The position numbers and the translations under genes were made by a program. A model generated the notes under the pieces. It had not been told where the DNA came from. It made no database searches and worked only from the letters and a program-made list of their open reading frames with translations. Of a DNA stretch of 64,000 nucleotides, positions 11,801-63,181 are shown piece by piece (positions within the stretch are counted from its first letter, which is position 1; the number at the start of each line of letters is the position of its first letter). This DNA is from Trypanosoma brucei (Eukaryota): assembly GCA_000002445.1 (NCBI GenBank), contig CP000067.1:64001-128000 (forward strand), read 5' to 3'.

Positions 11801-12575
11801 GTGTGAGTTATGTGCTGCTGTCAAACATAGTTAACTTCACAACCCTCAAGAAAGAGAGAAATAATAAAAGTAAAATGTAAACAAAAATAAAGTTAAGATA
11901 TATAATACACTTATGCTTAACTAAATGTAACATGTCATACGTAAAGGTGATAAAATAATAATCACAATGTAATGTTATCAATGCTTTCCTTCACAAACGA
12001 AAACTGTCACATCTCAATGTGTTCTTTCAAATTAATATAAAGGAACCAGCTGTGTTTGTATAATATTCTACAATGTCATTTGGTGTTGTCCAATGCTCAC
12101 TCAAAAAACTCCTTCGTTTTGTTGCGATGTAGCTGTTGTCAGTTGTGCTCTTTTTTTATTTTATTTTTTAACATACAACTATGGGTTTCCGTAATCCTCT
12201 CAATATTGCTGCAGTTCCCATCATTAAAAAAAAACAAAAGAAATCCATCAAAATAGCGTAACTGGAGTATAAGATGTTGTAGAGCACAATGTATTTATTT
12301 TGAGTAATGGAACTCTGTGAGGTCGAAGACAATAATCCTAAACGATTGAACCGAAACTTTCATTGCCCCATGCCTGTAAAATAATAATTTAATTGCTCAA
12401 CGCATATTCTCATCCTGCAGTAAGTAGTTCAAACAATTTCGTACACACATGAAACACTCGAAGGAAAAGAAAACATATACATTGCATAAACCTTTACTAA
12501 ATGAAAATACTATTTTTTGGTATCGAGTTCACCATGTGTTACAGAGCCACATTTCACTAACATGCTAAAGCATAA

Positions 12576-14294
12576 TTAATTCATCATCATATTTCTGATC
12601 ATCAGCGATAGGGCTTGACATTTGTATGATTCGACTCCTCCAACATTTCCTTTTACTCTTACAATCTTCACCAACTTGTTCATAACTTCATCGTTCCGCC
12701 AGTCAGCCGTGTGTTCAATAATATCATTATAGCAATATTTATCAGATTTCTTCATAGCTCTCAACGCATCATACACTCTTTTCAGATGCCACTCATAACA
12801 ACCTAAACCAAATATATAACGAGGCAGCGGTCCAATTAAATTAATGCGTCCCTCCACTATTTTCCACTCATCTTCAATTTCTCTCTTCAATTCGTATCTT
12901 CTTCTGTTGGACACCTTTTCTCCTGTATGTATTGACAGCTTTTTCCATGCCATAAATGCCTTCATGTCACGCACATCATCGCAGTTCATAATAATTTGGT
13001 GGCCTCCCTTATTTGCACTCCACTCATCAAAATGGGCACTTTTAGGGAAAGTGAGGAAAGTTACACTCCAAACATCAGAGGGAAGTTGAGTGTATAGTTT
13101 CTCCATTGCATACCTTGTGTCCATAATAATGTGTCCTCTGTTTTCAAATTTCATTTTATTTATGGCAGCAACGGCAGACTCCCAGCGTTCGTATTCATCA
13201 ACAGTCCCTCTTTCCTCACCCTCTCGGTTGTATATCAGGAAGGCAGCATCCTCCAAGAAATATGCAACAACATCAAGCATTCCTTCATTGAAGTGAAGCA
13301 GTGAATAAAATAAAAATGATCCAAGGCCACATGTTTTACCAATTCCAGACGTGCCAATAATAATATGTATTGGTGGACCCTCAGCTGTTGCTTCCATCCA
13401 CCATGCTTTCAGACCTCGTTGGATTATATACCACACGCGCATAATTTCACGACGGATATATACATGCTTGCAAATTGTCTTGCATCTCTCAGTGTAACCC
13501 AATACAAACCTGTTGTATGGCCAACCCTTCTCCGACGTAAGAACAAAAATCTCCAAACCATTGGATCCTTCCTTTACTCTTGCATCAAAATCGGCAGTTT
13601 TAGGAGTTATATTCAATTCTGCCTCCGTCCATATGCGCTGCGGCCTTCCATCGAATACCTTCATTCCAAGTGGCTCCGCATCATAACCCGACATCACATA
13701 ACTCCATTTCGCATTGTAAAAAGAATCGTAAACATCTCGACAACTTTTGACAGAAACACGCGGCAGAAACCATACTTCTGATTCCGTGACAGCATGTTGT
13801 ACTGCATTCAACCTTCCCCTTGCTACGGGGCTAATGGAGTTTTTCACTTCTGGAGTTGCACCGTTCACCCAATCGCTGATGGTAAAAATTTTTTCCTCAG
13901 AGAGATAAATATCTGCCCTCAGTAATTGAAACTCATCCGTATCCTGTATATCCTCAAGAATCTCGGCATCCTTAATATAATCTTCAGGATTCTTAACAAA
14001 CGTTTCCATTGACACATTCACTGTGTTATACGTGTTTGAGAAGCATTGATTCAAAAAGTCATGCAGATTCATTTTGGGCAATGTCGCATATTCTTCCAGC
14101 AAAAAATCCCTCACTGTACTGTTCATTTTCCAATCAGAAAATCTTTTATATCTCTGCGGCATCTGTGGAGGCTGAGCAGGAGGAGGTGCTACATTTTCAT
14201 CCCGTGGCCTCCTCATGGGCCCTTCAATGTTATTTGGCACTTGTGGGTTTGCGTTATTTCCTTGTGGAGCTGCGGGGCTATTGGCTCTTGACAT
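12576..14294 (-). CDS. RHS-like P-loop NTPase family protein, array edge copy 3 (572 aa). It has a bona fide ATG start and an 18-aa longer N-terminus (MSRANSPAAPQGNNANPQ...).
   Basis: ATG at 14292..14294 (plus-strand cat). Same P-loop motif. An internal segment is replaced relative to copies 1 and 2, and about a dozen scattered substitutions are present. Confidence 0.6.
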   Translation of the reverse strand: MSRANSPAAPQGNNANPQVPNNIEGPMRRPRDENVAPPPAQPPQMPQRYKRFSDWKMNSTVRDFLLEEYATLPKMNLHDFLNQCFSNTYNTVNVSMETFVKNPEDYIKDAEILEDIQDTDEFQLLRADIYLSEEKIFTISDWVNGATPEVKNSISPVARGRLNAVQHAVTESEVWFLPRVSVKSCRDVYDSFYNAKWSYVMSGYDAEPLGMKVFDGRPQRIWTEAELNITPKTADFDARVKEGSNGLEIFVLTSEKGWPYNRFVLGYTERCKTICKHVYIRREIMRVWYIIQRGLKAWWMEATAEGPPIHIIIGTSGIGKTCGLGSFLFYSLLHFNEGMLDVVAYFLEDAAFLIYNREGEERGTVDEYERWESAVAAINKMKFENRGHIIMDTRYAMEKLYTQLPSDVWSVTFLTFPKSAHFDEWSANKGGHQIIMNCDDVRDMKAFMAWKKLSIHTGEKVSNRRRYELKREIEDEWKIVEGRINLIGPLPRYIFGLGCYEWHLKRVYDALRAMKKSDKYCYNDIIEHTADWRNDEVMNKLVKIVRVKGNVGGVESYKCQALSLMIRNMMMN

Positions 14295-16501
14295 GTCTCT
14301 TATTATAACAATAATAATAATTATTATTAACTTAACTTAACTTCTATTACTTTCCTGATAATAAAAATAACTAACTAACGTAATGCATATTGTTGCGGTG
14401 GTTGATAAAGAATAGGAGGAGGTGGTAAAATAGAAAAGTAAAAGGGGATGAATAGCACTCACGTACGCAACACCGGTTATGTTGTGTCTCCCTCTTCGTC
14501 CTCTCAATTCAAGTTAGCAAAACAGAAACACGCACAAACACACACACATATATATATGTGAAACCTTACATTCAAATATAAGAAATTATAATATGGAATG
14601 TTATGCATCATTAGTTGTCACTACTTATTGCATAAAATAATAGAAAAATTAATTGCATCACGTGTATGTTTCTTTAGTGCCTCCTCTAAGAGGGAAAACT
14701 AAAGTGGTAACATTTGTCTGTTTAGTTTGTGTAAACTTCATATAAACTAACATACGGAAATAAAAAAATTAATAATAGACAGCTAATTAAGAAACGCGTC
14801 ATCGCATCACATTCCTTTAATAACTAACGAGAGAAAAAAAAATAGTAGGGTTTTCACAATAATGGATGTTAAAAGATTATGTGTAACAAAATTAAATGAT
14901 ACCCTATTTACTTTTTCGATAATATTCACTGGTAATATAAATCATACAATTTCAAGCACTGAAGGCAAAAGGTCCACAGGCTACATATTCATCATGTCAC
15001 ATGTGTCCGTATACCCTGTTAAACAACTTTCGTTCACTCACTCAATCATAGTCAATGCTTCATAAACAAAGTACGTCTTTTATTATGATCTGAAGGGAAA
15101 CTTATTATTATTATTTTTATTAAATTGTCTCGTTCACAATTCATATCCATTTCCCTCCATTCCACAACTTATACATGGACGTTTTTGAGAATGCTACCTG
15201 GAGTGCAGTGTGCAATTTATTAACAGTGAAAACAAAAAAAAAACATTTAGAAACTAGCGGTTCTCACTGCGGAAGAGCAACTGCAACAACAACAAAACAT
15301 CTTCCGCCTTTGGGTTTTGACAAATCAAAAGTGTATATTAGGACTGAATTAATAAAATACCTCATATTCCCTTTGTATGTTCTCATTTGGTTGTCATTTA
15401 AACTACGGGTTCCGTTGTAGCATATACATCGCTGAATTTTAAAATATATATATTTCGCTTCAACAAATAGTAACAACTATCGTGCTGGAAGGGACAATAA
15501 GTTAATGTATTTTTTTTTTGTTTTCCACATTCGTGGTACAGTGTTTGACCTCATCTCCTCTCTTCCTCGTGGAGCTGAGTTCACCAGATGCCGTGGCATT
15601 CACAATATTTTGTACGCACGAACTTTACCTGAAAATAATAAAGGAATGAAAATGATAATTCGCCGCTTCAAGATAATGCGAGTGCAGACACGACAAAAAC
15701 TACCGCTGCGCCTCAAAAAGGCACATCACGGCGTGGAGCCTTTAATGCAGTTTCTGTCAAATTTATCGTTAACGTTATTTCTTTCTTTCCATGGGGGTGG
15801 CGTGGCGATGCCGGATGTCGCTATCGTATGCATCATGGGGCAGCAGCTGCTGAGGGAGATAGAGAGGAAAAAAACGTATTTTTTTTTGTTCATTGCATTG
15901 AGCTTTACTGCCATTCGCTGACGATCCATTTCGATCATTCCAAATCGTGTGTTGCAGTAAATCTTAAGCGATTATAATAATATCGCATCCACGGTATGTT
16001 TTACACTGAAAAGAATAAACCACACCTGCGCTTAACATGCTCGCGGCTCCCTCCCCTCCATCATCCATGTTTACTACATTGTATTTCAACTGCAAACTAA
16101 TTGCCTAACTACTGAAGTGTTTGAGCAATGCGCCACCACACAAAAACAGAAAAGTGCTATGGAGGCGCTTGCATTTTAGTTGGACACAAATTGTCTCACT
16201 TTCAAATTCTGCAAGCGCACACACACGCAGATACACATAAAACATACGTATTCTTTCCAACACTTTTTGGAGGCACCTAAAGAAAAGTTATGATACAAAG
16301 GAATTACCGGGTCACATGAAAGAGTGCATAAATTGAAGTGCAAACAATGTTTCAACAGTAGAAATCGATACTTTTTTTTTTGCTGCTATCGTTAAAGGTG
16401 AAGTCGAACAAGATAACGACACGCAACCCATCGTGATACTGCGGCCCTTTGTTATTATTTATTATGTACCGGTGTCCTTACGTTGACAAGAGAAAGCGTT
16501 T

Positions 16502-16528
16502 CCCCCCCCTTTTTTTTGGGGGGGGAGA
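16502..16528. repeat. Homopolymer palindrome C9-T10-G8 (a potential hairpin with a C:G stem and T loop).
   Basis: Read directly: tccccccccc tttttttttt gggggggg at 16501..16528, in the non-coding gap between the RHS-like array and the HECT gene's 3' end. Confidence 0.8.
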
Positions 16529-16880
16529 GGAGTTAATGGGGGACTCCACAAGACTCAGTAGCTTTAATGGCGCAACTATAATCTTACATTCCAACAACCG
16601 CCGCCGTGAGGGCGGAGTCACTGACAAAAAAGCATGATTTGCACATGAATGGCAGTTGAGGTCTTTGCCACGACTCTTTACCTTGCACATACGCTCCAAA
16701 CAAAAAAAAAAATCACCACCCCCTTAGCTATTGCAACACTCGCTAAAGTCGTTAAACCATACAAAGATGTATAGAAGGCACATATTGCCATACAGATGTG
16801 GTTTCATGCTTTAATCGAATGAAATTCACGCTCTTCATATAATGATGAAAAGGCGCTCTCCCCCGTTTACTGCGATGCAA

Positions 16881-19800
16881 TTAGGCGTCCAAAACAATGT
16901 GCTCTTGTGCTAGCCCGTCAGTATCGATGGCTTCACAGTGCCGGATGGCATACAAAATCCGGTCACGCATAACATCAATTGAACTGTAGGCGGGTATACG
17001 GAGTGTAAAGAAACAAGTATTACTGGTTGGAAGGGAGTCACGGGTCCCTCCCCTTTTAACTTTGATGTTTTCCTTGAGCGGCAGCCTTGTTTGTCCCGTT
17101 GTAAAGCGGAGAAGCAGCATCCGGTCTTTATCACACATAGTTTCAATAACTTCGTCAAACATTTGTGAATCGTTTGAGGGGAGAGAGACCTCACAAACGT
17201 CACGCAGTGCTTGACAAGATAACTTAGGCGTCCCACAAATGATCAACTCCACTTGCTGCCAGCGGAAGGCATTGAGTGTGTACAAGGGGATTACTTGACC
17301 GAACCCATGCCGAATATGGCTGATCACCACATCATACTTGTGAACTTCGATGGAGGCAATATGTTCTGCGAGTATTCCCGCAGTACGAAGATCCACAGGC
17401 GGCAATTCCTCCCGCATTCTAAGGTGAGAATTTTCACTACAGAATCTCAACCAACTCTCCTGTAGGCCTGGAAATCTCTCCTCCAGCTCCTCAGCCGTCC
17501 GCTCTGCTAACGCCTCCGGTGTTAATTGCCTCATTATGTCACGATCCATGGCCCTCAGGTCACGCAGTGATGTTTCCTCGCTAAGTAAGAGTTTCCAAAA
17601 CAGTGGTGGAAACTCCACGGCGAGGAGATCTTTGGTAATAAAACACGCTGCGAGAAACTTCCCGAAAAACTCGAACATGGGAAACAGCTGAAATTCAAGA
17701 GCCATTGTTGCATTTGGCATCACGGCCAACTGCCCATCACAACCGCAGTCCTTAAAGAGGGGATTCTGTTGGAATTTCCCGCTTGGGTGTGTTGACATAA
17801 TCTCTGTCGCAAGCTGTGATAGAATATCGCGGTAAGGTCCCCCCACGTCCGTAGATCCAAAACCGGCAAGCTTTACGGTGAACATGGGCGAGACATAGAA
17901 GATAGAAATCGGACTTCGCTGAAGCTGCGCGAACAACTGTCCGAACACGGAACGCATTAGCGTTGGGTAAAAACCGTAGCGCACAGAGGCCCGGGCGTGC
18001 ATTGTATGAATGGTAACTTTCCCTTTGTGCCCCGTGCGATTTCTGAAAGGCCGCATTGTCTCATTTTGGATTTTTTTTGAAGACTCTGCAGAGCAAAGGC
18101 TCTTAAGCTTCTTCCACATTTCAAAAAGTTCTGTGCTGCGCCGAATGTCAACTACCACAGAAAAAACAGCCGTCAGTGTATCAAATATTTGTAGACGCTT
18201 AACATATGGTACGAGCCGCTCAATCGGAACATCGTTCCCCAGGACGTCAGCACCAAGGAAGGACAACAAGTGAGTATATTCCACTAAATCATGGGAAGGA
18301 ACAGTCAACGACGCATCACCGTTAGGGGAAACAAGCAACTTCTCTGATATCGAAAAGGTTTGACAAAACAGGGACAATTCAGCATAAAATTCGAACGATT
18401 GCGCGACAACCTCCGTGTCGAGGCGATGGGGATGTTCCTGGAACCTGCTGTAGAGTTGGGACACGTCCATACCAGTAGATGCTTCAGTGAGAAGTTGCTC
18501 ACCATGAAACGTTGCGTCTTCCCTTCTTTCCGCGAAGAACACCGGAAGTGCCAACATTTCGTTAGGAAATGTCTCAAATCGAGTAGTTGTTTCATTTTTC
18601 GACTCCCTCTGGAGATTAAATATAACGGCTTGCTCATGATATAAACACGTTACCAGAACAATGTCGCCACCTTTTGCTCTCACTTGCAATGGCTGCGATT
18701 CTTTTTTACGGCTTAGACAAAGATGTATCTTTCCATTTGGCTTTATGAGGTAACCACATGACGGTAACAAAGTGCTGGCCGACGACTGATCCTTATCTGA
18801 CGTACCTGCTGCTAGGGAACCCGGTAGTGAAGCATCCATGTTCCATCCAACGACAACATTTCCACATCGTGCAGAGTTCAAAACTACTTCGAATTTTTTC
18901 GAACCGAATGTACATCGAAACGTTTGGGAGAAGACACCGTAACAGCTACAGTACCCCTCGGGTGATGTTGGGCCGGTCAGTAGCTCAAAGCTGATACGGT
19001 GTGACTCCTGTTGCCCTCGCGTGAAAGCCTCGGGTAAAGGCCGTGGTGGTTTGGATGTAACCGCTTCGATGGCCAACTTCGTGCAAATGACAATGGCATA
19101 CGGTACACAACTCTGCCTCCCAGGAGCTGGTAAACTGGGTCGCTCCAGTTGATAACGCTGCAGAAGCTCACTCACCAGCAATATACCCAACTGTACAAAC
19201 GTACAGGACATCTTCCCCCTCTGACACATGCTACTTATCACAGCTAGAAGTGGAGCAAGTGATGCGCAAAGGGCTTCATGTGATGGCAGCGGGCAATTGC
19301 TCATTTTAAGCAACTGAAGCACGCATCGCAGAGCAACATTTCTTACCGCACGTACATGTGCCGTTGCGGTGCGAAGCAATAAAAGCATCAATGTTGATCC
19401 GAATGATGTCGACAGAAGATGGATGACGCCATCAAGGCTGAGCGACACATAAATGAGGTTGACGCTAACTTCCACGTTTTCTGCACTTTGCGCAGCGAAT
19501 GGCGCCGCAAGGCATGCGTAAGCGGCCGCAAGCAGAAAAAATGAGGATCTGCGGACCTCCGCCCGAACCAAAGCAGTGAGGGAGGACAAATCATTCCGCA
19601 GTGTAGTGTACGGAAGCAGATGTTGTAGTGTCTTGAGTGTATCCGATGAATTGCAACTCATGATGACGGTACCAATCAGTTTCTTCGCATACGACACCAT
19701 GGCCTCTTCAACTTGTGGTATAAGACTCGACTCACCACCACTTTGAATTCCTATAGCTGGTGTATTCCATGAGTGCTGACCGAGAGACCCCATCCCCTGC

Positions 19801-22800
19801 GAAACATTGGGTGAGATGCGGTCAATCATCAGTTGGGTCCATATTGTATCCATTGCACTGCGTTGAACGGGTGAATCTTCCTTGTGCAACACACGCCAAT
19901 GCACGACTTTGACGGAAGTACCGGGAGCAGAGAGCGTAAATGAAAGCTGCATATCTGCCGGGCAGTCCCTCCCTTGTAACACTTCGTATACCGTCTCCCC
20001 GTTCACCACCACAAGAGCGCGTTTCGCCCAGGGTATAACGCGAATGTAAAGTCGAACACATTTGACGGAAGATGTCGGCAATATGAGCGATTCACCATGA
20101 ACAGGAATTATCGGGATGGGTACGTCCACAAACCAAGCTGTTGGGGGATGTTGAAAAGTAACCCGCGCGGGAAACTGCACGGAGGTACACACCAGGAGCT
20201 CTATCTCATGTAACTTGAGTCCCTCGATCACTGGTTTTGTCACGGTGCACGATTGTGGGCCAATACTTGAGACGTGTTGAACACAACCGTTTGAAATCGT
20301 GACGTGTTGTGGAGAAGCTGAGAATGTCACCTCTTCCTCTACCCACGGTTGTTGTCGCTGAAACTTCAGCAGCAAACGGCGTCGGTGGTTTTGCCTTTCC
20401 AAGATTGGTGACAAGTCACGTTCGGCATCCTCCTTTGTCTGGGGTACATCACAAAAAGGTAAAGATACTGCGGAGACATCGCTACGGTAAGTGACGCAAG
20501 AAGCAACTGAAAACTTTGGTGTTTCATGGGGTACCGCGCAGCACTTGAGAGCGAATCCGTTAAAGAGAAGGTTGTGCTCAAGCGGCACACTTGTATCATA
20601 GGAGAAAACGGCAGTGTCATCCTCAAACTGAGTAAAATCGCAGTTGTAGCTCCTCGCGTTTACGAAGACACTAAGGGGGAAAATATCTTCGCAAGTTGGA
20701 ACAGGGCCGTAAACCAAAAATAGCGCCGCCTGCGAGAGATCGTCCTGTAATTTTTTAACTATCCGGTATCCACCGTCCTCTAATGAAGTTACACAACGTC
20801 CCAACTCATCCACATAAATAAAGATGTGCTTCTTTCCGTCTAATGACTCGACCTTAGAAAGGTCCTCTCCGTCAGTGCCCTCCGACGAACTCACAAAAAG
20901 CGAGGAGCCCTGTACACTGCTTATCTCCTTTACGGAAACTATGCATGACGTCCGAATCGGATCTGACACCCACCAAAAAAAATCACCTTCAGTGGTGAGA
21001 CGATCCGTGACTGCACACTGGTTACAGATCCGTCTGTTGAACTGAAGTTTGCTGCTTTGCATGTGCGGGGGGTTTAAGCTTCCTAAAGACAGGTAACGGC
21101 CGCAGATAACTCCGCGGAGATCATCCTCCAGTTGCCTCCAGGCAGGCGAGTCATCGAATGATACTCTAGAAACAGTCTCCCACTGCACCCATTCCATTCT
21201 GGTTCCTCCGAGAAAAATAAGCCGTTGTTCGCCGCTTTCACAAAGGATTAAACCACGCCCTAACGATTCGACCGTTACGGGCCCTCCGACAGGTCGATTA
21301 AATTGGAGATCTCTCGCGTTTACGCGTTGGCATAGGTAACTCCGATAACCGCATGACTGCGATGGAATCGTGTACGTAATTCCTCCATGAAGAAGCTGCT
21401 TCTCCTTCTGAATGCTTGAAAATGGTAGCGTACATGTAGTTACCCTCCCCGCCGTAATTCCAATATATTTATCCTCCAAAGCAACATTTGACAACCCTGG
21501 TCTTCCGTCCTCCGACACTGTGTAGAACATGATACTACTGTGGTTTGTGGTATGAAGAAAGAAAGCCACATGCTCCCCTGGAGAGATGGTTATAGACTCA
21601 AACCCCTCTACTTTCGCTTCAACGCCTCGTGCAAGCTCCATATCCCTTCGCATGACAACTTGCCACTCACCGCCTTGCTCTTCAACTCCTCTGAAAGTCC
21701 CATTACGCATAAAGAGAGTTACGGTCGCGGTAGATGTTGTGTCAGAGACAAAATACACCTTTACAATGTTCACCTTATTTCGTTTCGCAATAACATCAAA
21801 CATAATCCCGCTGCACGAGTTACCAGGAATGCACGCTTGGCGGCCCGTTTGAAGAAATATTGTCTCCTCTCCGGCACTCTTTTTGGCATCGTCTGCAAAC
21901 TCCCTTAGTTGATCAAGAATGTATGAAATTGTCATATTACCCTTTTCCAGCATGCCTGCAGCGGACCGGAAACCTTCCTCACATATTAGAAAGGTGCTGA
22001 ACATACGAAGGAGTTGGGCACAGCTCCACAAATCACCCTTCATATCACGTGTTCCTTGTCGCTGAAGCTGTGGGGAGGCGAAATGATCGTATCGACGTAA
22101 GGTATAAACATTCCAAACTGCGCATGTGACCGTGGCTCCTCGGCCAGTTTTCACATACACATTTTTCGGGTGGATGTTGCCGTGGATTAGAGAATGCAGG
22201 TGCCAGTGCTCCAACGCGGCAAGGAGGGACATAACAATGGATTTCTGTTGTTGTTTGGAGAATCTTTCCATGTCTAAGGAGTTAAGAGTGCCGTCAAACC
22301 AGCCATGCGTAATAACACCAAAACTTTTTGAGGAGTCCAATGACTGCATTATGTCCTCTTGGTACATTACACACGGATGCTTTGTTACTACGTTAAAGGA
22401 CGTAACAGTTATTTCGGGGTCATCATGGCTAAATATGTGCAGTGTTCGCTTGCTTGTTGTGTTGTCGTCAAAATATAGTAAACGAACCATAGAGCTTCCA
22501 CCGACCCTACCAATAACCTCGTATGCGCTAGGCAACCGTATAAAAGTGTCCCCTTCATCTGCGGTTCCAGGAATGAAAACGTGCGGTTTATCCAGCGGTG
22601 ACGACAAAGCATCCACTACCCTCCGAACCGCAGTTTGACCGCAAAATTCCTCAAGCTTTTTGTCCTCAACTCGAATCATCTCACGCGAAAAAGCACCCAC
22701 CTCCGCGAGTTGCTTAAGAGCATTTGACAATCTGTAAGCAAGTTTCGAGTTCCCGCAATGGTCACACCAAATGAGTTCAATGGCAGTCACACGATCTGAA

Positions 22801-25800
22801 GGTAGACTGTAGAGTACATGTCGAAGTACGGTGTACGTTGAAACCACTACGCGGAACGGTATTCGGCGAAGAATAGTCGGTGTTATTGGGTGTGATGCCA
22901 GCACCACGGAAGGTGGTGCTCTAAACTTTCCGGCTCCCAATGCACCACCGTAAAAGGTAGCAAGCGTGGCGGACGCATTAGCATGGTCCAAACGAACAAA
23001 GGGAGACACGCTCAGATTGGAAGGTATATTGTGAAAGACAACCCTTGGGGACTCATTGTTACGTGCTAAAGAAAGGGTTCCATTGTCACGATCAAGAAGA
23101 AAATGCAACTTTGTTCCCGCAAGAAACATCGTGTTGCCTGACGAGTCAATAGGGGGAATTCGTTCCTGTGTGGGTAAAGAGTCGCCGTCGAGAACATCTT
23201 GCACTATCCAAACCTGGTCAACTTGCTCACGAAGTTTCACGAAGTGCGGCTCCAGCTGGTCGAAGGTCGATACCACAATTCCAGCAAAGTGCCCAGAACC
23301 AAGTGAATCACCTCCGGCACGGTCACTGCGGGTTATTTGCACAACAAATCCCGACAAACCAACTGTTGGAAGTGGGGACCCAATCACTGCTTGCCCGGAT
23401 GCATCATTACAGCTTGCCGTGCGACCTTTGTTCGAAATGACTACTTTGGACGGATTACACAAAGTCCACACGGGGGTGTATTCCACAACACCCTCAGACC
23501 AGCTCCTTGATCTTGTGGATATGCCTCTGTCGATCACCTCTCGTGGTGAATGGAGGTAGAGGCTAGTAGGATGAGGCCCTACGTTCATAACTGCTATCTT
23601 CGGTGAAATCCCCTTCAACGACGAGCCAACGTGCTCCCTGTATGAGACATGGCAGCGAACGTTGTCATCCTCATCGTACACGACAAAATCGTTATCAGCT
23701 GTGAATGCGAGAGTAAGTTCTTCGTCACGTGCGAGGCTGAAGCTGCGGTGAATCACACTGTTTCGACTCCCTTCCCAGTTTATCTTAAAAATAGGTCTAA
23801 ACAGTTGGACGAGCACTTCCAAAAAGAAAACATTGGCACTTGTCGCAGACACTGCCCCCAGCTTCCAGAAGCGTGGCTTATTCACTGGCCAGGCACCTGT
23901 GCTGAACACTCCCTCAAGCTCGCATGCTTCGCTTGGTTTCAATTCTACTGTGTCATACCCCCCTGCCCAGCGCCACGGATGTGACACCGAACTCATGAAA
24001 GGCGTAGGTGGTGGGAACGTCATCTCACAAATTGAGAGACGCAAACAGTCACAACCCCTTCTCTTAACGAAGAAGCAATACTGCGAGGGAGCAAACACTC
24101 CTAACTGCTCGTGAAGCGGTCCTCCGTGAGCTGCGTAATATGTTGCAGGTTCGTAGAGGATATCCTGCTCGATATCATCACCAAAAACAATGTGCAAAGA
24201 GACTTGCAACAGTTTGGGGCGTGATTTGCTGCTTAAACGTAGTGGAAGATCGGTGACGAACGCAACTCCCCAGGAGTCCCCGAGGGGAGTAAACAAAAGG
24301 GAGACAAACGCAGCCAGATTTTCATTATATACAAAGGGACAGGCAAAGCTGCAGCACTTTTCGTTCCATCCGTCTTCGTGAAGAAGCTCCGGTGATAACA
24401 TGTATTCTACGCTACCTGAATCCAGCGCTCTACCCGAAATCGAGTCGTGCCTCCTTGCTTTGATAATTCTATCAGCGGCAAAATTTGTCGACCTTGTGTG
24501 GCGCACCAAAGACGATGCACACGCGCTGCCAGCATCAAAGGACAAGTTCCACCGTTGAGCAATGTACCGTGCTAATATGCTAATCAGATGTTCTTCCTCC
24601 CTTAAAGCAGGAAAATGGACAGTTCCTGTCGCCTGGCATACGCTTTCGACAGCAAAGGGTTGGTGGCACCAGCCACACTCAATAACAGGAACTAAACAAT
24701 CTACTGGTACCGTGACACAGACGGGAGTACCACCCCTACCAACCTCTACCGCGACTTGGGATTTAATATCGGGATCACTGACTAGACGCACCAGCTCCCC
24801 GGCGGAAAACTCCCCTGACCCCAGTGCGATGACAGCAAGATCTCCCTTGCACAGCGAATTGAAGTATGCCACACCATTCACACCAAACGGTAGTGTCACA
24901 ACACCATCACCCAAGGCGTCTGTAAGATTCCCGTTTACCACACCACTCAACAGATCTTCAGATATTTCTTGCCTACCAACGTTTCCCGGTCGCGCCTTCA
25001 CAAGCTTTCCAAGGGATTCAATCACACCAGTATCTTCAAAGGGTTGCGTAACCGAAAACGGCCCGCTGGCAAAAGCCACTAGCGCTGTCAGAAGGCGCGT
25101 AATGACAAACCCCTGTACTGCGGGGAAAACAGCCATGTTACGTCCCAGTAAGCGCCGTTGAACAATAAGACGGTAGGTGACACGCCCACGAAAGGCACGA
25201 GGTTCTGATGGTATCTCCAAGAAAGGTACAATCCCCTCGCTTTTCTTTCCAACATAAATTGTCAAAACCCCGTCGCTCTCGAATTCGTCGCCCACATCGC
25301 CAACGTGCCCATCGCTGCTGTTATAAAACCGGACTCCACAGCTGGATGTTGTGTTGACATACAAAGCGTACATCTGATTCGCCCGCAGTTGAAGATTGAG
25401 TGGACCCGGAGAAAAGGTCTGCTTATCTGCCAGGTAAAGGTACCGAGTTGCGACCTCTTTCCATTTTGAAGGGACCTTTTCAGCGCCCTTCATACTTCCC
25501 TCCTTCCAGAAAACTCTGACATTTATGTTATCCGCTGTTGTTTGAGAAATGCAGAATATTTCTTCCAACAACACATCCTGCTTGCTGCGGATGTCGAACA
25601 TGATGCCGTTGTATGATGCTGAATTGTTTTGGCTGAGATGCCCACCCGTCGATATAGCGGAAAGAACCTCTGACACGCTCATGGGGTTTGCAGGTACGGC
25701 AAGAATATTACCCACAAGTCCTCGGACAGAGAAAAAGGTATTGCTTACACAGTGACCCTGCTCGCTGCAGGTAAAAAAACATCGTATCCGCTCCCTTCCT

Positions 25801-28800
25801 CTTTCCCTTACCATGCCCATAGTTCGTTCACAGACAGCACTGAAGACATAAGTCCCCCTTTTCATTTTAAGTTGGAGTTTATTCATTACGATTCTGTGTG
25901 AGCACTCTTTCGGGAGCAATACCTCATGATGTACCCAGACCCAATTCCTCTCTCTCGATGTCACACCCTCGGTAGAGTCGTTCACGTCAGCGCAATACAG
26001 AGAAACATGAAAGCTCATCGGACCTATAGTGTGCCCCACGTAGGGTTGAACAAAAACGGGTAGTAGAAGCTCTCGCAGCACAACCGGACCATCAAAAACA
26101 GTAACAACAAATTCAGCTCTTTCCGAAAGAGTAGACATTTGGGGGCGACTGACCAGTGGCAGATGATCGCTGCACCCATCATTATTCCTTTCATCCCACT
26201 CTCGCCACACAACAGAATCAGTTTCCTCCACTGCGAGAGCCTGTGCCTCTTCACTACGCACGTACACTATGGAACCGCAAAACCCGCAAGAGTTGGAACT
26301 AACATCAGTAAAGGGGGTGCTACTCTCGCTGGTGCGCCCCATCAAAACTGTGAGGGTACCGTCGGAGTCCATTTCCGATGAAACGGCCCCCGAGCAACCT
26401 CCCTCCTTCGCGTAATGGCCGACTCCAAAGTTGTGCGTAGCGTTGATGTATAAAGCGAAAGTTGAGCCGCCTTCAATACGGATTCCGTGAAACGTAACGG
26501 AGAACTGACGACCCGCGCGCATCTTAACAAAGTTAGAGAATATCTTCGTCCACGAGCCGCTAGTCCGTTCATGCATCTGGTGAGAACCCTTCTTGAAAAA
26601 TACTTCCACCCGATGGCGTCCCGAAGCGTGGGTGAGAACGGTCAAACCGGTCAGCACAACCGAATCCTCAGCTCGAACATCAAACATAATACCATTGTAG
26701 GACTCGTTGCGTAAAAGCCTGAATTTTGTGCTCCCCACAACAAACACACGCGTGACGCTGCCATCGGGGGCTTTCAGAGCGGGATATGGGGGTTGTAAAA
26801 CTTTGTGTGGTCCCTCGTTGTCCAGCACATAGATGCTGTTTTTATCCAGGGAGAAGCAGACACGCTTATCCGTTTCGTCGCATACGTTGACTGTATTGCC
26901 CCCTATTGACGTGACAAGCCCACGTTTGGGCTGAACGAGGCTTCCGGCTTTGAAGGCCACCTTAGCACCCACTACAATAGCGGCCGCATCAGCGGAAAGC
27001 GCACAGTGGCGAACATCGCGTTTCCGCACAACGTACTCTCGCTTTCCTTGGCACGGGCACAAACACTTCACAACCCCAACTCCAGAACCACATGTGCGGA
27101 CGACCCTCCCCAGATGAGCCTTTCCAAATAGTGGCGGCACCACCGTTGCAGTCATTCCACGCGTCGAAAGGTAAGCAACAAGCCGAGGCCGATGCAATAG
27201 AGTCTCCGGAGGGATCGTATATGTCGCTATCAGCAGACCGTTGCGGTACGCGGCCACTTCCCTGTCCACTCGCTCGACCGTTATTGTGTCGCCAATAGAA
27301 AAGAGTATCCCAGTACCCTCCTCTGCTATACGCGGCGCAACCTTCCAAGCGGTTCCGCATTGAGCCATGGTGTAGCTAAGAGTGTCGAAGAGAAGATTGT
27401 TGCAGCCCATAATGCCAATGTCAGGACCTATACAGTTACTTGGAATGAGTCCAACGGCCACTGAAGAGGAATTTATATCCAAAGCATCATCATTGACGGA
27501 AACCCATCCACCTGTAGAAGTAACCTGGCATGGTGTGCGCGTGAACACAATCACACGCAAATTCGTGTCTTCTTCAATGGGGCAGTTGCACGTCGCCACG
27601 GTCGGGTGAAGATGAAGACCGCGAAGGGAGGAACTCAGCATAATGGATCCCTTTGTCATATCAACTGAGAGATATACACTGCGAGGCGTAGCCGCTTTAG
27701 TTTTGGAGTCACTCCATGTGCCCCAGATGTTACCGTGTGCTATGCGGCGCTCAAACTCCGCGGAAGTCATGACGCGGTAATCACACTCTTCGCTCGTTAC
27801 ACCCACAAAAATCGCAGAGGCATCAACTGGCGACGGCTCAATATCCTCATCAAGAAAAAGCATACTAACCACAACTTTTGAGCTGTTAGGAATCACAGTC
27901 GGGCTGATCAAGATCATGTTACTCTTAATTGATACACTTGTTTGCAGAAGGTTATTTACACACCACAGCAAATCGAAGGAGTGTAAACCTCCAAATGAAA
28001 AGCCGTCAACACCAGCAACGTGGCTAACGGTCACATCAACACGGGAGTCTCCATAGGTGGAAAAGTCATCTAGCACAGCAAAGGCAGCGCCATCAGTCGC
28101 TATACAGGTACTTCCATCGATTTGGACATTAACACTTTTATCACGCATCCATGCAAACGCTGCGGTTTCCATAAAACCAACAATGCTGCCAACGACCAAC
28201 TCCTTCGGGCTGTGCTGCGACAAAAGATAATCCGTAAGGTTATCGTTGTGATCGGTGAAGTGAAACATACATTTTGGGTAACGCCAACTATTGAAACACT
28301 CAGAGCACAGACAAATTCCACCTTCCCCCTCGTACCACGCCTCCAACATCTCCGAACCGCACGATGCGCACAGCACCGGAGGAGTGCTACGTGTCAGGGC
28401 ACTAATGTTGCTGGGGGGGTATGTGTTTCGCGCAGGGAATGTGTGGCAGTCAAGAAATGAGAAGACAACAACCGAATCCGGTCCAGTAAGCACGAAGGGC
28501 CTCAGCTTTTTCTCTTCAGGTATCTTCTCAAACAAAACACCAAAATCAACGCACTTACCACCACGAACACGAGAAAATGAAGCTGTTCCTTCCTGCCTAT
28601 TCACTTTGATAATTACTACATCATCCGAGTCAAACAACAATTGCCCGGCACTGTATATCATACCAGGCTCCACGAAACAGTTCGTGTTATTAGTTCCCTC
28701 TGAATCACGGTTACATAAGGCCCAAATATTTTCGCACCGTACTATCGCCTGGGGTTCTGCCGGCTCCTCTGTTTCTGCCGTTACGCCGATGTACATAAGC

Positions 28801-31800
28801 GTCCCTTTACTCTCTGCAATTGTGATACTTACGGCAAAGGAGAATACGTCCTCAAGCACAACGTTGCCTCGCACCGCTGAGTAGTGCGCAGCCGAGGTTA
28901 CACCGATCGACGGGCTTGGTGTGAACAGACTTTTCGTGGAGAAACGTCGGTCGATAACAACAGGTGTCCTCGACATGGGTTGTTGGCCGTTAACCATGCG
29001 GAACGAAGAAGATGTTGATTGAGTCGCTGAGACGGGAGCATTGCGCCTCAGTAAGGTCACAGAGCCTTTTTGGTTAGTTGTTTCATGACGTATTATTTGA
29101 AGAGCAGTATATTCCATATTCATTGCATCAGTAATTGTTTTAACAAAATTTTCCGCGATGTCCATTCTCTGCTCCTTTTCATCGTTCATTAGCGGCACGA
29201 CCGCAGATGCTTCAAACAAAATTCTTCTTAACCCGCTGGTTAACCAGCCACAACACCTCAAACTCTCTCCCTCCGAAACCGAAAAAAGCGCAGGCATTAC
29301 GAAGGAGGGCTTCAGGTCTGCAACATCTGTAGAGAATTGCCTCCCATCCGGATCGGCCTCAAGGTAAACCACAGCTCTTGATGCAGATTCGGATATGGAA
29401 TCTACAACGACGGGACCGTGCGTTTTATGTTGGCAGAAGAGTCCACTTCTTTCACCACCCAATATGGCTAGTGCGACTATACATTTTTCGAGGTCATAAC
29501 TAGACCGAACAAAGAAGGAATATATCCAATCCGATATCGCTGGGCCGAAGTATGGAGTGACGTGGAGTTGTTGAAGGACACTAACCGCCACACCCCGTCG
29601 CAAACTGGAAAGCAATAATTCACATGATTCCTTTACCTGTGAGGGGTCAGCGATAATATCACAAACCGCGTCTTCGTTGAAGTGGAACACAAATGGATAT
29701 AAATCATCGACACGGTGAATGTTTGCGAAGGCCAATCCGATGCGCACCATGTTTTCTCTGTAGTATGTTATCTCCCCTACATCAGCGTTTAGTTCAACCC
29801 ACACAACTTCATCACATCCGTAAACCCTCCGCTGACTGTTACGGGGAATGGTTTGGCGGCGCAGAAGGAGGTGTGGCACCTGATCACCGTCGTCAGCGTC
29901 TTGCAAAATGTAAACGTCATCCCTAGAAATTAAACTTGCCATAGTGGTAACAGGTGTATGCCCATGTGAGAGACCGATGTAATAGCAACCCCCCAGCGAT
30001 GCACCAACTCCATGGCCCATTTGCATTTGGCGGCGGATGCGGAAACCAACTTTATGAGTCCCTCTTGCAGGTAGTGGCTTCTCCCCATAAAAAGCACCCC
30101 CACCGGTGACTCGGGTCCGACCACCCGTCCACCGTGGAATGAAGGCGCGTTGCGAACACTCGGGATAGATTTTTGCGCGTGCAAGCTCCGTAAGAGAATT
30201 CACAATGACATCGGGGGACATGGAACCTCGTAATGCCTCGACAGCCTCTGCAAAACAGTCCTGCCGTAGTGTACGTGCCATGTGGCCAAGGGAGCGAGCC
30301 GCACGTGCTTTCACCCAGTGATCATGAGCCTCGCTTAATGTAATCGAACAAATTCGTAATATTTCGAGGTGGGCCGAGCGACTAACTAGACTGCAACGAA
30401 AACTATCAATAACGACGTTAACTATGCGAAAAAGTCTCGTTAGTAAAACACCACCAATATGGAGTCTTTGCCTCTTGAGTAAGTGAGTGCTTTCATCACT
30501 GTATAGGTGTTTGAGACTCGTGACAAGTTCAACAACAACATCTCTAAGAAATACGGAGGCTTCCTCAAGCAGCGCACAAATAGAATCCCCATTCGCATTG
30601 AAGCCGGGTTGGCCAAGCCGTTGTAGATTCTTCAAGCATACGGTTACGAGATAATGCACGGCAATAAACGAAGCATCACTAATCATAACAGGCGAAACGG
30701 TTTGAGTCCGACAAGAGCTGTGCAGAGAAGCCATATCAAATTCGAACGGAGCGTTTTCTCCGAAGTTCACTATCAGTTTGACGAGCATTCCATCCGTCTG
30801 CACGGCAACAAATGGTATAATGGTGGAAAAGGTACATTCGGTAGCAATTCCTAGAAATTCCCCGTTGCGAGTAAAGAATAAACTGGAAGATGGGGCCATA
30901 ATGCCGCAGCCAATGACGTCTCCGACCGACCAAGGAGTCGAAAATTCCACATTAGCGTTGGAATACCTTACAGTTCCATCTGAACAAAAAGCTGCTGAAC
31001 AATCCTTTCCGACTGACTCACACGACGAAATGGAGGAACTTGTAACACCAATGCAAACAAAAACCTCCTCATTGAGAGCAAGTTCGAGAGTTATTTCAAA
31101 GTACAAAACCTCCGCCATATCAGCCAACACACACCCACCAGCGAGAGCTGCATAGCAATCCCGTTGAGCTGGTGACATATCAAATGCCTCCTCTGCTTTA
31201 AAGGCTCTCCACTGATTACGTGCTAAGAAACATATGTCGGCACCTTCAACATGTACGCCCAGTGTATCACCCTCCACTACTGTAGCACCATCCGCTGCAG
31301 GCTGTAATGAATTTGGTACAATGACGCTACGATAAAGCAAATTAAATAAGCCACGATCCTGTAAGAAACGGTGCCACGCAATATCAGTGCTGCTTCCATT
31401 AAGTGGAGTGACTACCGTATCTGCAATCGGTGCGAGAATATAGGTTTTAAGAACGCGGAAAACTTTCGACGGATTTATTGCGGAAAGGTCCACACTGTCC
31501 CATGGGTGGCAAAGAACGGCACACAGAGAAAGCGCCTCCATACCCCTTGACGCCTCGCATTGCAGCTTGGCCTCAACTATTCGCGAAAAATTGCGGTGAA
31601 TAACACAGTGAAAAAAGCTACAGGTTGCCCTCTGGAGCTCCAGTTCCCGCTGGAACCCACAACCAATAATTGGCTCAATGTAGTGAACCTCCGTCAGATC
31701 CTCTAAAGTAGCCTCGCTATAACCAGAGTTAGTACGGACATTATTGGAGGCTTCGTTGCTGTATTCACGGCGCCTCGATCGTATAAACTCCCTGTAGAAA

Positions 31801-34800
31801 AGGTGTGAGTTCACGATTAACCACGACATATCCTCATCTAGTTGGTGAGAAGACAACAGTTTTTCCTGAAGCCTGAGTACGGCCTTGTTATTGCTGGCGT
31901 ACCTTGCTTTTTCAACAAGTGCCCTTACCAAATCCTCGTTCGTAACACCGTTACACCCATTAAGAAGAAATTTGAACACTAAGGTTGAAATACTCTCCGT
32001 ATTAGTTGCTACAAGCTCACTGATCGCATCAGAGGTTAGCAGCGGAATGCGCGGCCGGTTCATGCTCCCGACTTCCTCATGACAATGTTTTGAAAGATCG
32101 GATAAACTCGACGTGAAACGACCTAGGGCACTTACATTCCAACTTTCTGTTCTCTCGTGTGAAACGTGTGCGGATTTGCTCAAAGTTGTACGAACATTTG
32201 CCACCGAATGCACACTCGTTGGGGATGAAACACGAGTGACTGGTTCTTCTGTTTGCTGCTGTTCGGCCATAGCGGACTCCAACCGATCTCGTGGGTTGAG
32301 TGTATCAAGCAGAAAGCGCGCTCGATCTAGCATTGCTTTTTCATCGCCTTGTTGCAGGGCCTCCAGTATGAGATATGATTTCTTGCGCATAAAGTCGAGG
32401 GATTTCTCCACATGCTTTAGCAACGAAACGTTTTTTGTCCTCCGCAAGTGCCAGGCATGGGCCGCGCAGAATGCGCGCATAACATACTCTAAGCGATCCT
32501 GGTAAGGAACATGTTTCTTGCGGTACAGTTCTTGCCACTGAGAAAGAAGATCACCAAAACCTTCAAACAGGTCAGTTAGTTCTTTCTGGTCTTCTTTGTC
32601 TAGTAGAACTTCGTCACTCATTCCGGGGACGTTATGCTTCTTTAGAACTTCCTCTGAAAGGCCCCCGCGGAATATGCTGTTCTGCGGAAAAACAACGGTA
32701 TCAGGTAGGCCTTTGAGAAGCAGCTGCTGAGTGTTATGAAGAATTGCCTGACCTAAAGCAAGACATATATCACTAATCCAGTAAGATAACTCTGTTTGTA
32801 GCATCACACGCGCATTAACGGTAATAAGTGACTCTTCCTTTTTGGTATTTGTGACGGTAACCTCCACCCTACCACCGCACTCGATGGTTAGGTGCTCATC
32901 ACGCATGGTGACAAAGGTGCGCCGGCCTTCGTTTGTTACAAGGGCAACCCTTACCTTATTGGTTTCCCTTGTTGTCGGATGTTCATGCAATACCTCAATG
33001 CTGCGCGCGTAGCGTAAGTCAAGGGATGTCGTGTGTGTGCATGCGGCAGGAACAAAAATTCGATGTGTTTCTGTCAAATTGTGGTTCACATATTGTGCTG
33101 GAAGTATGTCGGCGTAAGGATACAGGACATTACGAGTCTCGTTGAGTAAAGTGAGCACGTCTCTGGCAATGCTGCTGTCGAGTAGTAGATCTACGAGATA
33201 ATGAACAACAGGAAATACCACAACCCCAATGGCAGTTTGTTTAAGCAAATTCAACTCTTCAGTCCCACCGGTATGCCCCGACGCCACGTTAGAAAAGAGG
33301 CCATTGAACAATCGCATTGTTCCCTTGCACAGAGAATTTAGCAACGCTATGGCCACCAGATGCCACTGGGGGTTGGCCTTTCGTGACAAAATACTGAGAA
33401 GGGTTGGGAGCAAGACACACGAGGGTCTGAATGACGCCCCTTTTCCTGTTAAAATCAACTGCGATTCCGCCAAGCACGCTTCCTTCAGACGATTTAAAAA
33501 CGCCATAAACGGTTTCTTTAAGTCCTTTTCCAATACGCTAGTGACCAACGACGGTATATAGTCGGATACTAAAAGGTCTTTTATGTCCGTCAGTCTTTCC
33601 GTGCTCAAAATTCTTTCTAACAAGTAGTCATAGCTGACGCACTCCATAACTAAAACACGGTGCAGCTCCTTAAAGACAAACTGAGTCTCCATCAAAATAC
33701 CCCTGTCTTCGGGTTCCAACCTGCTAAGTGTCTCAAACATATCCACAATAATAGCCACCAAATGTGGCGGGCATCCCCTCTTAATCCAAGTAAGTTGCTG
33801 AGTCAGCAGCCGACCACACACACAAAGGAGAAGTAGGGAACTGCTGTTCCTCCCAAGAGGTTGTTTGACGCGTAATATTAAGTCCTGTGAAATGTCAATA
33901 AGCCTAGAAACGGTTCGAAGTGATGTGCTATTCCAGGAAAAAAACTGAGGGGTGTACTGTGTGCCGCCGCAACACCTTCCTTCGGCGACCAACACGGCAT
34001 TTAGTCGATGCAGAATAAGGTTCGAGAGTGAAAAGGGTGTCACGATGCCTTTATCACCTTCGAGTTCCAAGAATTTTTCGCTCACAGTTTCTTCATCACG
34101 CATACTTTCAAGTTCTCTCACATGCATGGCGGGTGGTGCTTGCGTATCCACCCAACGAAGACTCAGGCCACTACTTACGTCACAGATAACACTATACATA
34201 CGGCTTGTGAACCCGCATAGAAAATATAGTTCCTTTGGATGAACGTCTGCGGTACACTGCTCCAAAATGCGACCATTTGCATCCATCCAAGTACAAAATC
34301 CATCCTCCACAATGGCAGTCTCGAACGTGTTTGTCACTACGTAGTAGTCTCCTAATGGTGTGTATGGAATTGCTTCCTTCTCTGTAACATCACAGCCAAA
34401 GGGTACTTTGGGGGGTGGACCCCACGAAATGACGCCCTTCCACGTGATGGCGCCGTCACTGCTTCTTAGGCAGCAACCAGAACCCTCATTCATCTTGAAA
34501 GAGCACAGTAAACCACACTGGGAAGCAGGTGAGAGTCTCCCCTTAGCAGAAGTAAGCATATCATTGATGCATTGAGCTCGGTGCCAGATTTGAATATTCG
34601 AGATAAATCCACTGAACGAGCCACGGAGTAGATCTACGGAACCCGTTGTGGAAGTGGAAAGATTGGCCACTTTGCACCTTACAGCACAACTTTTAATCAT
34701 CACCGCATCTTTGTAGACATTCCAAGTGAACACACCATTTGTGTTTTGCAGTGTTGCACTCCAAAGGGCCCACTCACTCCGCAACGGTTCATGAACCTCA

Positions 34801-36722: not shown

Positions 36723-37306
36723 CACAGGCTTTGTCCACAAGCTAATTCTTCGACGGCAAGTTCAGGCGAGAGATATAACAAAATATGTGAAGCAAAAAAA
36801 AAAAAACAGTCTTAGACGATAATCCCCTTTTCAGATTGTGCTTTTCCTATTCGAATCCCCCTCCTTTCTTTTTCTCTTTGTTTGCGTTTGTACGCACCTT
36901 TAGTACCCTCTGTCCAAACCCGCCGAATAAGAGGAGAAGGGAGAAAAAAAAAGGCAAAAAGTTGTGCTACAGAAAGGGTAAGTGACTGAGTGAATAGCAA
37001 TGGCGACAATTCCTCAAAACCCTTAAATAATATACGGACACATTAACTGACTAGTGGAACTAGTAGGCGCGATCTGACTACACGGTGACTATCATCATCC
37101 CTGCCTAAATGCTTTCTTTATTATGTTAAGCACCGAGTCGTGCAGAGAAATTAACGGGCGCTCACAAAGATACACCAAATAATTATTATCACTTTGCCTT
37201 TTTCGGTACTCCTATATTTAGGCAAAAGAGATGAAGCACGTCCTTTCACTAAACACCCACAAGGTTGGAATATCCACTGCGAATGGGATGGCTCGTCGTA
37301 ACGCTC

Positions 37307-63092: not shown

Positions 63093-63181
63093 CCTTGGAT
63101 GTACGCAAGCACAAAGAAAGAGATGATAAAGAAATAGAAAAGAAGAAAAACTATAGAATTTACAGTTATAGAGGGGGGGGG
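63093..63181 (-). promoter_or_regulatory. Polypyrimidine tract plus AG, the presumptive spliced-leader acceptor region for TOR.
   Basis: Coding-strand sequence T6 C10 then CT-rich, ending ...tatag / ...caag immediately before the ATG. The plus strand shows G10 at 63172..63181. Confidence 0.6.

Follow-up and report, generated by a model that had tools for sequence, protein, structure and literature searches.

A 64,000-nucleotide stretch of Trypanosoma brucei DNA (GenBank assembly GCA_000002445.1, contig CP000067.1, positions 64,001 to 128,000; hereafter the window) carries on its minus strand a giant open reading frame (ORF) that ends in a HECT ubiquitin-transferase domain. Within this frame a short motif, HGNIHPKNVYV, resembles the catalytic loop of protein kinases, which raises the question of whether a kinase-like domain lies inside a ubiquitin ligase and, if so, what it could do there. 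The original prediction, made from the letters of the DNA, had proposed a pseudokinase with a phospho-regulated or substrate-docking function. The analysis described here indicates that the motif is what remains of the catalytic loop in a genuine kinase-fold domain and that this domain, as far as can be judged from its sequence, is almost certainly catalytically dead. Stripped of its catalytic residues, the kinase fold most likely acts as a docking or scaffold module within the giant HECT ligase.

Evidence for a kinase-fold domain

The HGNIHPKNVYV motif was found at nucleotides (nt) 22184-22152 of the minus strand (ORF residues 4853-4863), at most about 16 nt away from where it had been placed (approximately 22165-22200), and its HxD triplet reads HGN in the translation, as had been reported. 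Residue numbers such as H224 are counted below in the 321-residue segment used for modelling, residue 1 of which is ORF residue 4630.

Comparison of the T. brucei segment with PDB sequences by phmmer yielded 178 matches at E<=10, the best 60 of which were all protein kinases. The top match, CDPK1 (E 1.3e-4), was aligned from strand β4 to helix αF, with HPCVM paired with HPNIM, HGNIHPKN with HRDLKPEN, SPQ with APE and DLWS with DVWS. A profile built from eight orthologues gave 290 PDB matches at E<=1, and again the best 60 were all kinases, headed by Snf1 (E 7.6e-7, kinase residues 68-236). When the orthologue profile was aligned with eight kinase domains by hhalign, the homology extended over 207 columns and included the N-lobe (99.2% probability, E 1.4e-18, residues 40-268 of protein kinase A, PKA); one of the eight domains was that of PKA, and the other seven were taken from the preceding matches. 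Reversed and column-shuffled controls reached a probability of no more than 0.1% (P 0.47-0.92). A significant kinase-fold match, on which the original prediction depended, is therefore provided by both the PDB profile and hhalign, and by these comparisons the resemblance of the segment to kinases is far beyond chance.

One metagenomic orthologue (P0006) passes the Pfam Pkinase model by itself (53.4 bits, E 3.3e-14, cut-off 31.7), and its precomputed annotation lists SPRY, Pkinase and HECT domains. When 1.84 billion representative proteins were searched exhaustively, 18 matched at E<=1e-3, and half of these (9/18) were the giant ligase itself and its orthologues; the other nine were unrelated proteins, and phmmer with PKA detected kinase domains in eight of these nine, mostly in several tandem copies. 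A word-indexed homologue search with the segment gave no match, though parent proteins with 0-1 differences are present in the collection, and very long proteins may be poorly covered by the word index. With kinase homology established by profiles and hhalign and the HECT domain by Pfam, both in one ORF, the proposal of a degenerate kinase domain inside a HECT E3 is borne out.

Structure model

An AlphaFold2 (AF2) model of the 321-residue segment, built on an alignment of eight sequences, has a mean predicted local confidence (pLDDT) of 84 and a predicted TM-score (pTM) of 0.81, and no segment falls below a pLDDT of 50. Foldseek comparison of this model with PDB structures gave 1,834 matches at E<=1e-3, of which the best 50 were all kinase or pseudokinase domains, including DCLK1 (E 2.2e-8), several CDPKs and, at rank 10, the TRIB1 pseudokinase (E 1.4e-7). 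The order of the secondary structure elements is given in Table 1. The region in which helix αC would be expected is about 10 residues shorter than in kinases and is not helical in the model, and the orthologues share this shortening. The N-terminal extension that precedes the kinase-fold core is kept in all orthologues, with L17, P18 and W29 invariant. The pTM of the whole model suggests that the extension packs on the kinase fold, where it might compensate for the absent αC helix.

One part of the original prediction has to be revised. The sequence KSFGVITHGWFDG, which had been read as the Gly-rich loop, is indeed present at nt 22328-22290, but it is not Gly-loop-like: only 48 residues separate its start from the catalytic-loop His, compared with about 110 residues for the Gly-rich loop of kinases. 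HMMER, hhalign and the model all place it at strand β5 and the hinge, in which W185 is conserved in eight of the nine orthologues.

Catalytic residues and their loss across orthologues

Orthologues were obtained from T. rangeli, T. vivax, Leishmania tarentolae, Porcisia hertigi, Angomonas deanei, one metagenome and raw-read (Logan) assemblies. Wherever a record extends to the C-terminus, it matches the T. brucei protein collinearly up to and including the HECT domain; Angomonas is represented by a fragment of 1,309 aa, a collinear match that ends before this domain. The comparison of motifs below is based on hhalign and an alignment of nine orthologues, whereas the PDB profile was built from eight.

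Neither DFG, D[FLY]G nor HRD occurs anywhere in the 321-residue T. brucei segment, in agreement with the earlier observation that no DFG follows the loop. In PKA numbering, the catalytic loop keeps the His of HRD and Asn171, and has exchanged Arg for Gly, the catalytic Asp for Asn and Lys168 for His. The orthologues differ in detail from T. brucei and agree in what is missing. The Gly-rich loop (GRVGGSS in T. brucei) is variable in both sequence and length and deviates from the consensus everywhere (GILSNE, GYRNSD, GCVEGT, HLVPEH, GTTTPS). At the position of the VAIK Lys (RTLHIF in T. brucei), the nine orthologues have F, V, L or a gap, never Lys. The HRD triplet (HGN in T. brucei) appears as HGH, HTG, HSH or HGR, and the His that takes the place of the catalytic-loop Lys (PKA K168) as A, S or C. 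In place of DFG, T. brucei has CAVW and the orthologues C-x-[LVM]-W, never with Asp; Cys occupies the Asp position in 8/9. The APE equivalent (SPQ in T. brucei) is variable.

At the VAIK, HRD and DFG positions, which the original prediction had proposed to inspect, the alignments show all three catalytic residues replaced, and none of the nine orthologues retains a canonical HRD or DFG. The Asn of HGN, for which a comparison of kinetoplastid orthologues had been proposed, is not conserved: most orthologues have His at this position, and G or R also occur. Degeneration also goes beyond the earlier account, as the β3 Lys, the Gly-rich loop and the αC helix are gone as well. A pseudokinase is recognised by the lack of one or more of three residues (VAIK Lys, HRD Asp and DFG Asp); here all three are, according to the alignments, absent from a kinase fold that sequence profiles and the structure model support.

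Residues invariant in 9/9 orthologues are T137, E215, H216, L219, H220, H224 (the HRD His) and N231 (equivalent to PKA N171), and D274 (the αF Asp) is invariant in the 8/8 orthologues with coverage at this position. H159, S209, H218 and C244 are additionally shared by the eight orthologues whose domain is complete; in the P0007 fragment the position of H218 is occupied by Arg. In these eight, the invariant acidic residues are limited to E215 and D274, both part of the structural core, and there is no invariant Lys. Judging from the alignment, every sampled lineage retains the scaffold residues of a kinase and has lost the catalytic chemistry. Because the same pattern of loss is seen in every orthologue, from trypanosomes of Africa and the Americas and from Leishmaniinae to distant relatives in a metagenome and in raw-read assemblies, the pseudokinase state is, on the sequences sampled, ancient and conserved across kinetoplastids.

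Invariant His and Cys residues specific to this family (H159, H216, H218, H220, H224, C244) cluster around the former active site; apart from H159 (ORF residue 4788), they are encoded by window positions 22214-22113 of the minus strand. W185 and W247, also near the former active site, are nearly invariant. The cluster may serve to bind a metal or a ligand, or it may reflect no more than packing of the core.

One T. vivax record (P0009, Y486, UniRef G0TTQ8, 6,096 aa) appeared to have lost the domain: residues 60-267 of the segment are missing, and the N-terminal extension runs straight into αF, which might have indicated that the ligase can dispense with the domain. This loss was rejected, as the record is labelled a fragment. 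The full-length T. vivax protein (P0028, 6,613 aa) contains the domain, with HGHIAPQN at the catalytic loop, and the gap is therefore an artefact of assembly or gene modelling.

The most kinase-like version of the domain was observed in an environmental relative of the giant ligase (L001; ENA ERZ19398298, scaffold_1380, 2583-22517), presumably from a kinetoplastid. Its 6,644-aa protein shows 29-33% identity to the T. brucei ligase in two BLAST segments, and its domain reads HGHICPEN, SAPEL and DVWSAG and passes the Pfam Pkinase model, although Lys, HRD Asp and DFG are already missing from it.

Proposed role and alternative explanations

The domain may be pictured as a rigid protein-protein interaction or scaffold module that binds no ATP and catalyses nothing. 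All residues that phosphotransfer requires have disappeared (the Gly-rich loop, the Asp residues of HRD and DFG, the Lys residues of β3 and the catalytic loop, and αC with its Glu), and residues that hold the fold together have been kept (the E-x-x-H motif of αE, the HRD His, the catalytic-loop Asn and the αF Asp). Placed in a string of β-sandwich modules of the kind that other E3 ligases use for recognition (SPRY and PHR-like), the pseudokinase would help to bring substrates or partners within reach of the HECT domain at the C-terminus. Considering the analogy with known pseudokinases and the domain context, a docking or scaffold role is most likely; it is also more likely than the phospho-regulation that had been envisaged, in favour of which nothing in the data speaks.

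Several observations weigh against this interpretation. The Pfam Pkinase search that had been recommended succeeds for the metagenomic orthologue P0006 but not for T. brucei, whose segment scores 18.8 bits (E 1.1e-3) against the cut-off of 31.7 and matches profile positions 80-132 only; the segments of T. rangeli, L. tarentolae and Angomonas are also below threshold. As the T. brucei result is sub-threshold, this search cannot settle the kinase question by itself. The structure was predicted from eight sequences only, its Foldseek TM-scores lie in a moderate range (0.33-0.59), and the lack of an αC helix, uncommon for a kinase fold, could have arisen in the modelling. Inactivity is deduced from the sequence, and WNK, CASK and SelO were likewise first called pseudokinases before they proved active by means of displaced residues. 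The docking role is proposed from analogy and from the neighbouring domains.

The domain might instead be a purely architectural element, i.e., a rigid spacer or strut that shapes the giant ligase and has no ligand or substrate of its own, comparable to the modules that other giant E3s carry inserted on their solenoid. Such an explanation, which appears unlikely, would agree with the restriction of invariant residues to the fold core, with the absence of any conserved surface motif identifiable without model coordinates, and with the tight flanking by other domains, the PHR-like domain lying about 10 residues downstream. It would also agree with the degree of conservation: identity to T. vivax is 46% for the core and 45% for the whole protein, and the domain is therefore about as conserved as the rest of the ligase and no better than the protein average. 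However, known pseudokinases usually work via specific protein contacts, and domains of the SPRY and PHR types, such as those nearby, serve other E3s for recognition. Moreover, H216, H220, C244, W185 and W247 are invariant or nearly so although a generic kinase fold does not need them, which hints at a specific site. Whether the former active site could still be functional, as an atypical kinase or as a nucleotide-, metal- or ligand-binding switch that gates the HECT domain allosterically, was also considered, and this appears very improbable. There are precedents of misjudged pseudokinases, N231 and H224 are invariant, and the His/Cys cluster could bind a metal. Nevertheless, because E215 and D274 are the sole invariant acidic residues and no Lys is invariant, no residue is available as a catalytic base or Mg ligand, the Gly-loop equivalent varies in sequence and length, and the β3 Lys position is hydrophobic (or a gap) in all orthologues. 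The αC helix is also absent from the model, and the position adjoining H224 that would complete the putative site varies (N, H, G, R).

A chance match of the motif, or a recent decay of an active kinase specific to T. brucei, might be suspected from the sub-threshold Pfam score of the T. brucei segment and from the fact that a protein of 6,600 residues will often contain single short motifs of the H-x-[DN]...N type. This is refuted by the PDB profile, by hhalign with its controls and by the orthologue motif comparison, and it retains practically no probability. Returning to the docking or scaffold module, it is tempting to speculate, though decidedly unlikely, that the pseudokinase is the specificity-determining receptor of the giant ligase, a cis-fused counterpart of Tribbles-COP1, whose cleft (lined by H159, H216, H218, H220, H224, C244, W185 and W247) would bind a metal, a peptide or a partner, its occupancy gating the delivery of substrates to the HECT domain. 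If true, this would be a form of regulation that no HECT E3 has been described to use.

Comparison with known systems

The combination of kinase and HECT domains is not unprecedented, since HECT proteins with protein kinase domains were noted in Naegleria gruberi and Ectocarpus siliculosus (GL-Bikonta family, class IV) in the survey of Grau-Bove et al. (2013; PMC3673628). As in those proteins, a kinase-type and a HECT domain share one polypeptide in T. brucei. In the scheme of that survey, Naegleria is grouped with kinetoplastids in Excavata, and the kinetoplastid kinase-like domain is not reported (PMC3673628). Unlike the class IV proteins, whose HECT domains are highly divergent, the T. brucei protein has a HECT domain nearest to those of HECTD3 and E6AP, as well as SPRY domains, a hallmark of class I. 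It thereby resembles the giant class I SPRY HECT proteins (HERC1, HECTD3 and the excavate HECTEx1; PMC3673628), in which a C-terminal HECT domain follows several SPRY-type domains; the likeness to HECTEx1 is one of architecture. Unlike the giant ligase, HECTEx1 is not described with a kinase-like domain (PMC3673628). HERC1 and HECTD3 are not known to have one either. With the PHR domains of MYCBP2 (PAM/Highwire/RPM-1) and BTBD1/2, the PHR-like domain of the giant ligase shares only 6-8% identity; MYCBP2, unlike the giant ligase, is a RING/RCR-type ligase and has no kinase-like domain.

Among pseudokinases, Tribbles (TRIB1-3), which work with COP1, offer an analogy in the possible mode of action. 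Tribbles proteins are substrate-recruiting adaptors for ubiquitylation and, similar to the T. brucei domain, have a catalytically impaired kinase fold with an abnormal αC. Tribbles act in trans on a RING ligase via a C-terminal COP1-binding tail, in contrast to the cis arrangement with a HECT domain in the giant ligase, and their catalytic loop is still recognisable and their αC helix present, though bent. The domain is not assigned to the Tribbles family, as there is no specific sequence relationship and generic CAMK-type kinases score equally well or better. PTK7, ROR1/2, ULK4 and IRAK3, highly degenerate metazoan kinase folds that are used as scaffolds, were also among the sequence and structure matches; most of them keep several canonical motifs and αC, and some bind ATP, whereas in the kinetoplastid domain all of these are lost.

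No literature on a pseudokinase fused to a HECT domain was found, kinetoplastids included; the recognised matches among those listed were cases in trans, such as TRIB3-Smurf1. A survey of the T. cruzi ubiquitin system lists SPRY, ARM, zinc-finger and Laminin-G3 domains together with HECT, and no kinase. In a knockout study of E1, E2 and E3 enzymes in L. mexicana, HECT E3s of up to 733 kDa were all dispensable in promastigotes, and a kinase-like domain is not mentioned for any of them.

Implications

Pseudokinase scaffolds are an established theme and HECT proteins with kinase domains are known from other protists, and the role of the kinetoplastid domain is proposed here by analogy. What the present analysis may add is a fold and a testable role for a stretch of about 320 residues in a protein that is among the largest and least understood of trypanosomatids. 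The names in public records ('hypothetical protein, conserved' for XP_844181.1, 'B30.2/SPRY domain-containing protein' in UniRef, and 'SPRY domain/HECT-domain (ubiquitin-transferase)') never include kinase, and the pseudokinase was missed earlier because it lies below Pfam thresholds in T. brucei and in the two Leishmaniinae checked. The kinetoplastid pseudokinase repertoire thus gains a cryptic, extremely degenerate and anciently fixed member within a class-I-like SPRY/PHR/HECT giant ligase, in which a kinase fold appears to have been recruited as a non-catalytic module. Trypanosomatid parasites rely heavily on post-transcriptional and post-translational control, and if the domain docks substrates, it would offer a handle on the ubiquitylation targets of this ligase of about 730 kDa.

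The giant ligase and its locus

Features of the giant ORF are collected in Table 1. The annotated protein starts at Met7 and comprises 6,613 aa; from this first Met, the product is 100% identical to XP_844181.1 (UniProt Q57UU4) of T. brucei brucei TREU927, and 17 residues differ in the T. b. gambiense protein. With a C-terminal HECT domain and a predicted catalytic Cys, the ORF is classed by its sequence as a HECT E3 ubiquitin ligase. The closest PDB relative of the HECT domain is human HECTD3 (E 1.9e-26), followed by E6AP, and the candidate catalytic Cys lies in TCFFTL (nt 17015-17013), 43 residues before the C-terminus. Approximately 1,400 residues separate the pseudokinase from the HECT domain. 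Pfam detects several clear SPRY domains N-terminal of the pseudokinase region, and a weak, sub-threshold SPRY/Neuralized-like region is found upstream of the pseudokinase. The PHR-like domain corresponds to an NGIMFD repeat for which Pfam and PDB sequence searches gave no match, its PHR-like identity coming from a structure model alone.

Table 1. Positions of the giant ORF, its domains and the elements of the kinase-fold segment in the window
Feature	Position (nt)	Strand	Segment residues (AF2)	Remarks
Giant ORF	16881..36740	minus		6,619 codons, uninterrupted, mechanical TTG start; ORF list and translation
HECT ubiquitin-transferase domain	16932..17720	minus		C-terminal in giant ORF; Pfam HECT E 1.3e-42
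PHR-like β-sandwich domain, third of three copies	21348..21860	minus		Starts ~10 residues after pseudokinase
PHR-like domain, other two copies	26738-26241 and 25655-25152	minus
Kinase-fold (pseudokinase) core	21891..22535	minus		ORF residues 4736-4950 (annotated 4730-4944), ~215 residues; predicted N-lobe β-sheet without αC, compact C-lobe
N-terminal extension of pseudokinase domain	22536..22853	minus		ORF residues 4630-4735, ~105 residues; predicted seven-helix bundle and two extra strands (AF2)
GRVGGSS, Gly-rich loop equivalent	22491..22511	minus		Between β1 and β2; hhalign aligns YEVIGRVGGSSMV with FERIKTLGTGSFGRV of PKA
RTLHIF, strand β3	22431..22448	minus		VAIK Lys position hydrophobic (F, V or L) or gap
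KSFGVITHGWFDG, strand β5, hinge and start of αD	22290..22328	minus		HMMER aligns with SFYIVGELYTGGEL of CDPK1; model strand 177-183
LEHWHLHSLIHGNIHPKN, end of αE and catalytic-loop remnant	22161..22214	minus		Bears the reported HGNIHPKNVYV motif
CAVW, DFG equivalent after β8	22113..22124	minus		hhalign: C244 opposite PKA D184 (Mg-binding Asp)
SPQ, APE equivalent	22076-22068	minus		End of short activation segment
DLWS, αF motif (DxWS)	22023..22034	minus		Structural Asp equivalent to PKA D220 kept
Seven-helix bundle			1-84
Two extra strands			91-106
β1-β3			111-142
Coil in place of αC			143-164
β4-β5			165-183
αE			200-219
Catalytic loop			221-231
β7-β8			232-246
Short activation segment			248-262
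αF			271-288
Short αG-I			292-320

Two further observations concern the giant ORF. At window positions 28370-28284 (minus strand), CASCGSEMLEAWYEGEGGICLCSECFNSW resembles a ZZ-type or other small Cys-rich zinc finger, for which Pfam gave no match. On the plus strand, a GTG-initiated ORF of 170 codons (22126-22638) is antisense to the pseudokinase-coding region and is most likely a chance ORF.

Near the giant ligase lie an array of retrotransposon hot spot (RHS) genes and the genes for an SLC35F transporter, CAF40/Rcd1, a TOR-type PIKK and proteins with WD40 and RRM domains. The PIKK (window 55854-63221, minus strand; 2,455 aa) has FAT, FRB, PI3_PI4_kinase and FATC domains, and both published RNA interference (RNAi) primers for TbTOR2 (Tb927.4.420) match its ORF exactly, at 56411-56430 and 55945-55964. 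The transporter that adjoins the giant gene is an SLC35F2 homologue, known as Tb927.4.320 in the literature. Because the TOR2 primers fix the locus and the Tb927.4.320 homologue adjoins it, the giant gene is most probably Tb927.4.310, a number that comes from gene order and not from annotation. Paper texts contained no mention of Tb927.4.310, the nearest string being Tb927.4.3100, and in the supplementary tables of the T. brucei kinome RNAi library (Jones et al. 2014) Tb927.4.420 (TOR2) is present, and both the inferred Tb927.4.310 and the word HECT are absent.

Just downstream of the giant gene, three RHS ORFs of 565-572 aa lie in tandem on the minus strand (1711-3408, 7146-8843 and 12576-14294). 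Pfam finds RHSP, RHS_N and DUF7578 in them, and the array is typical of the chromosome-internal or subtelomeric RHS clusters of T. brucei.

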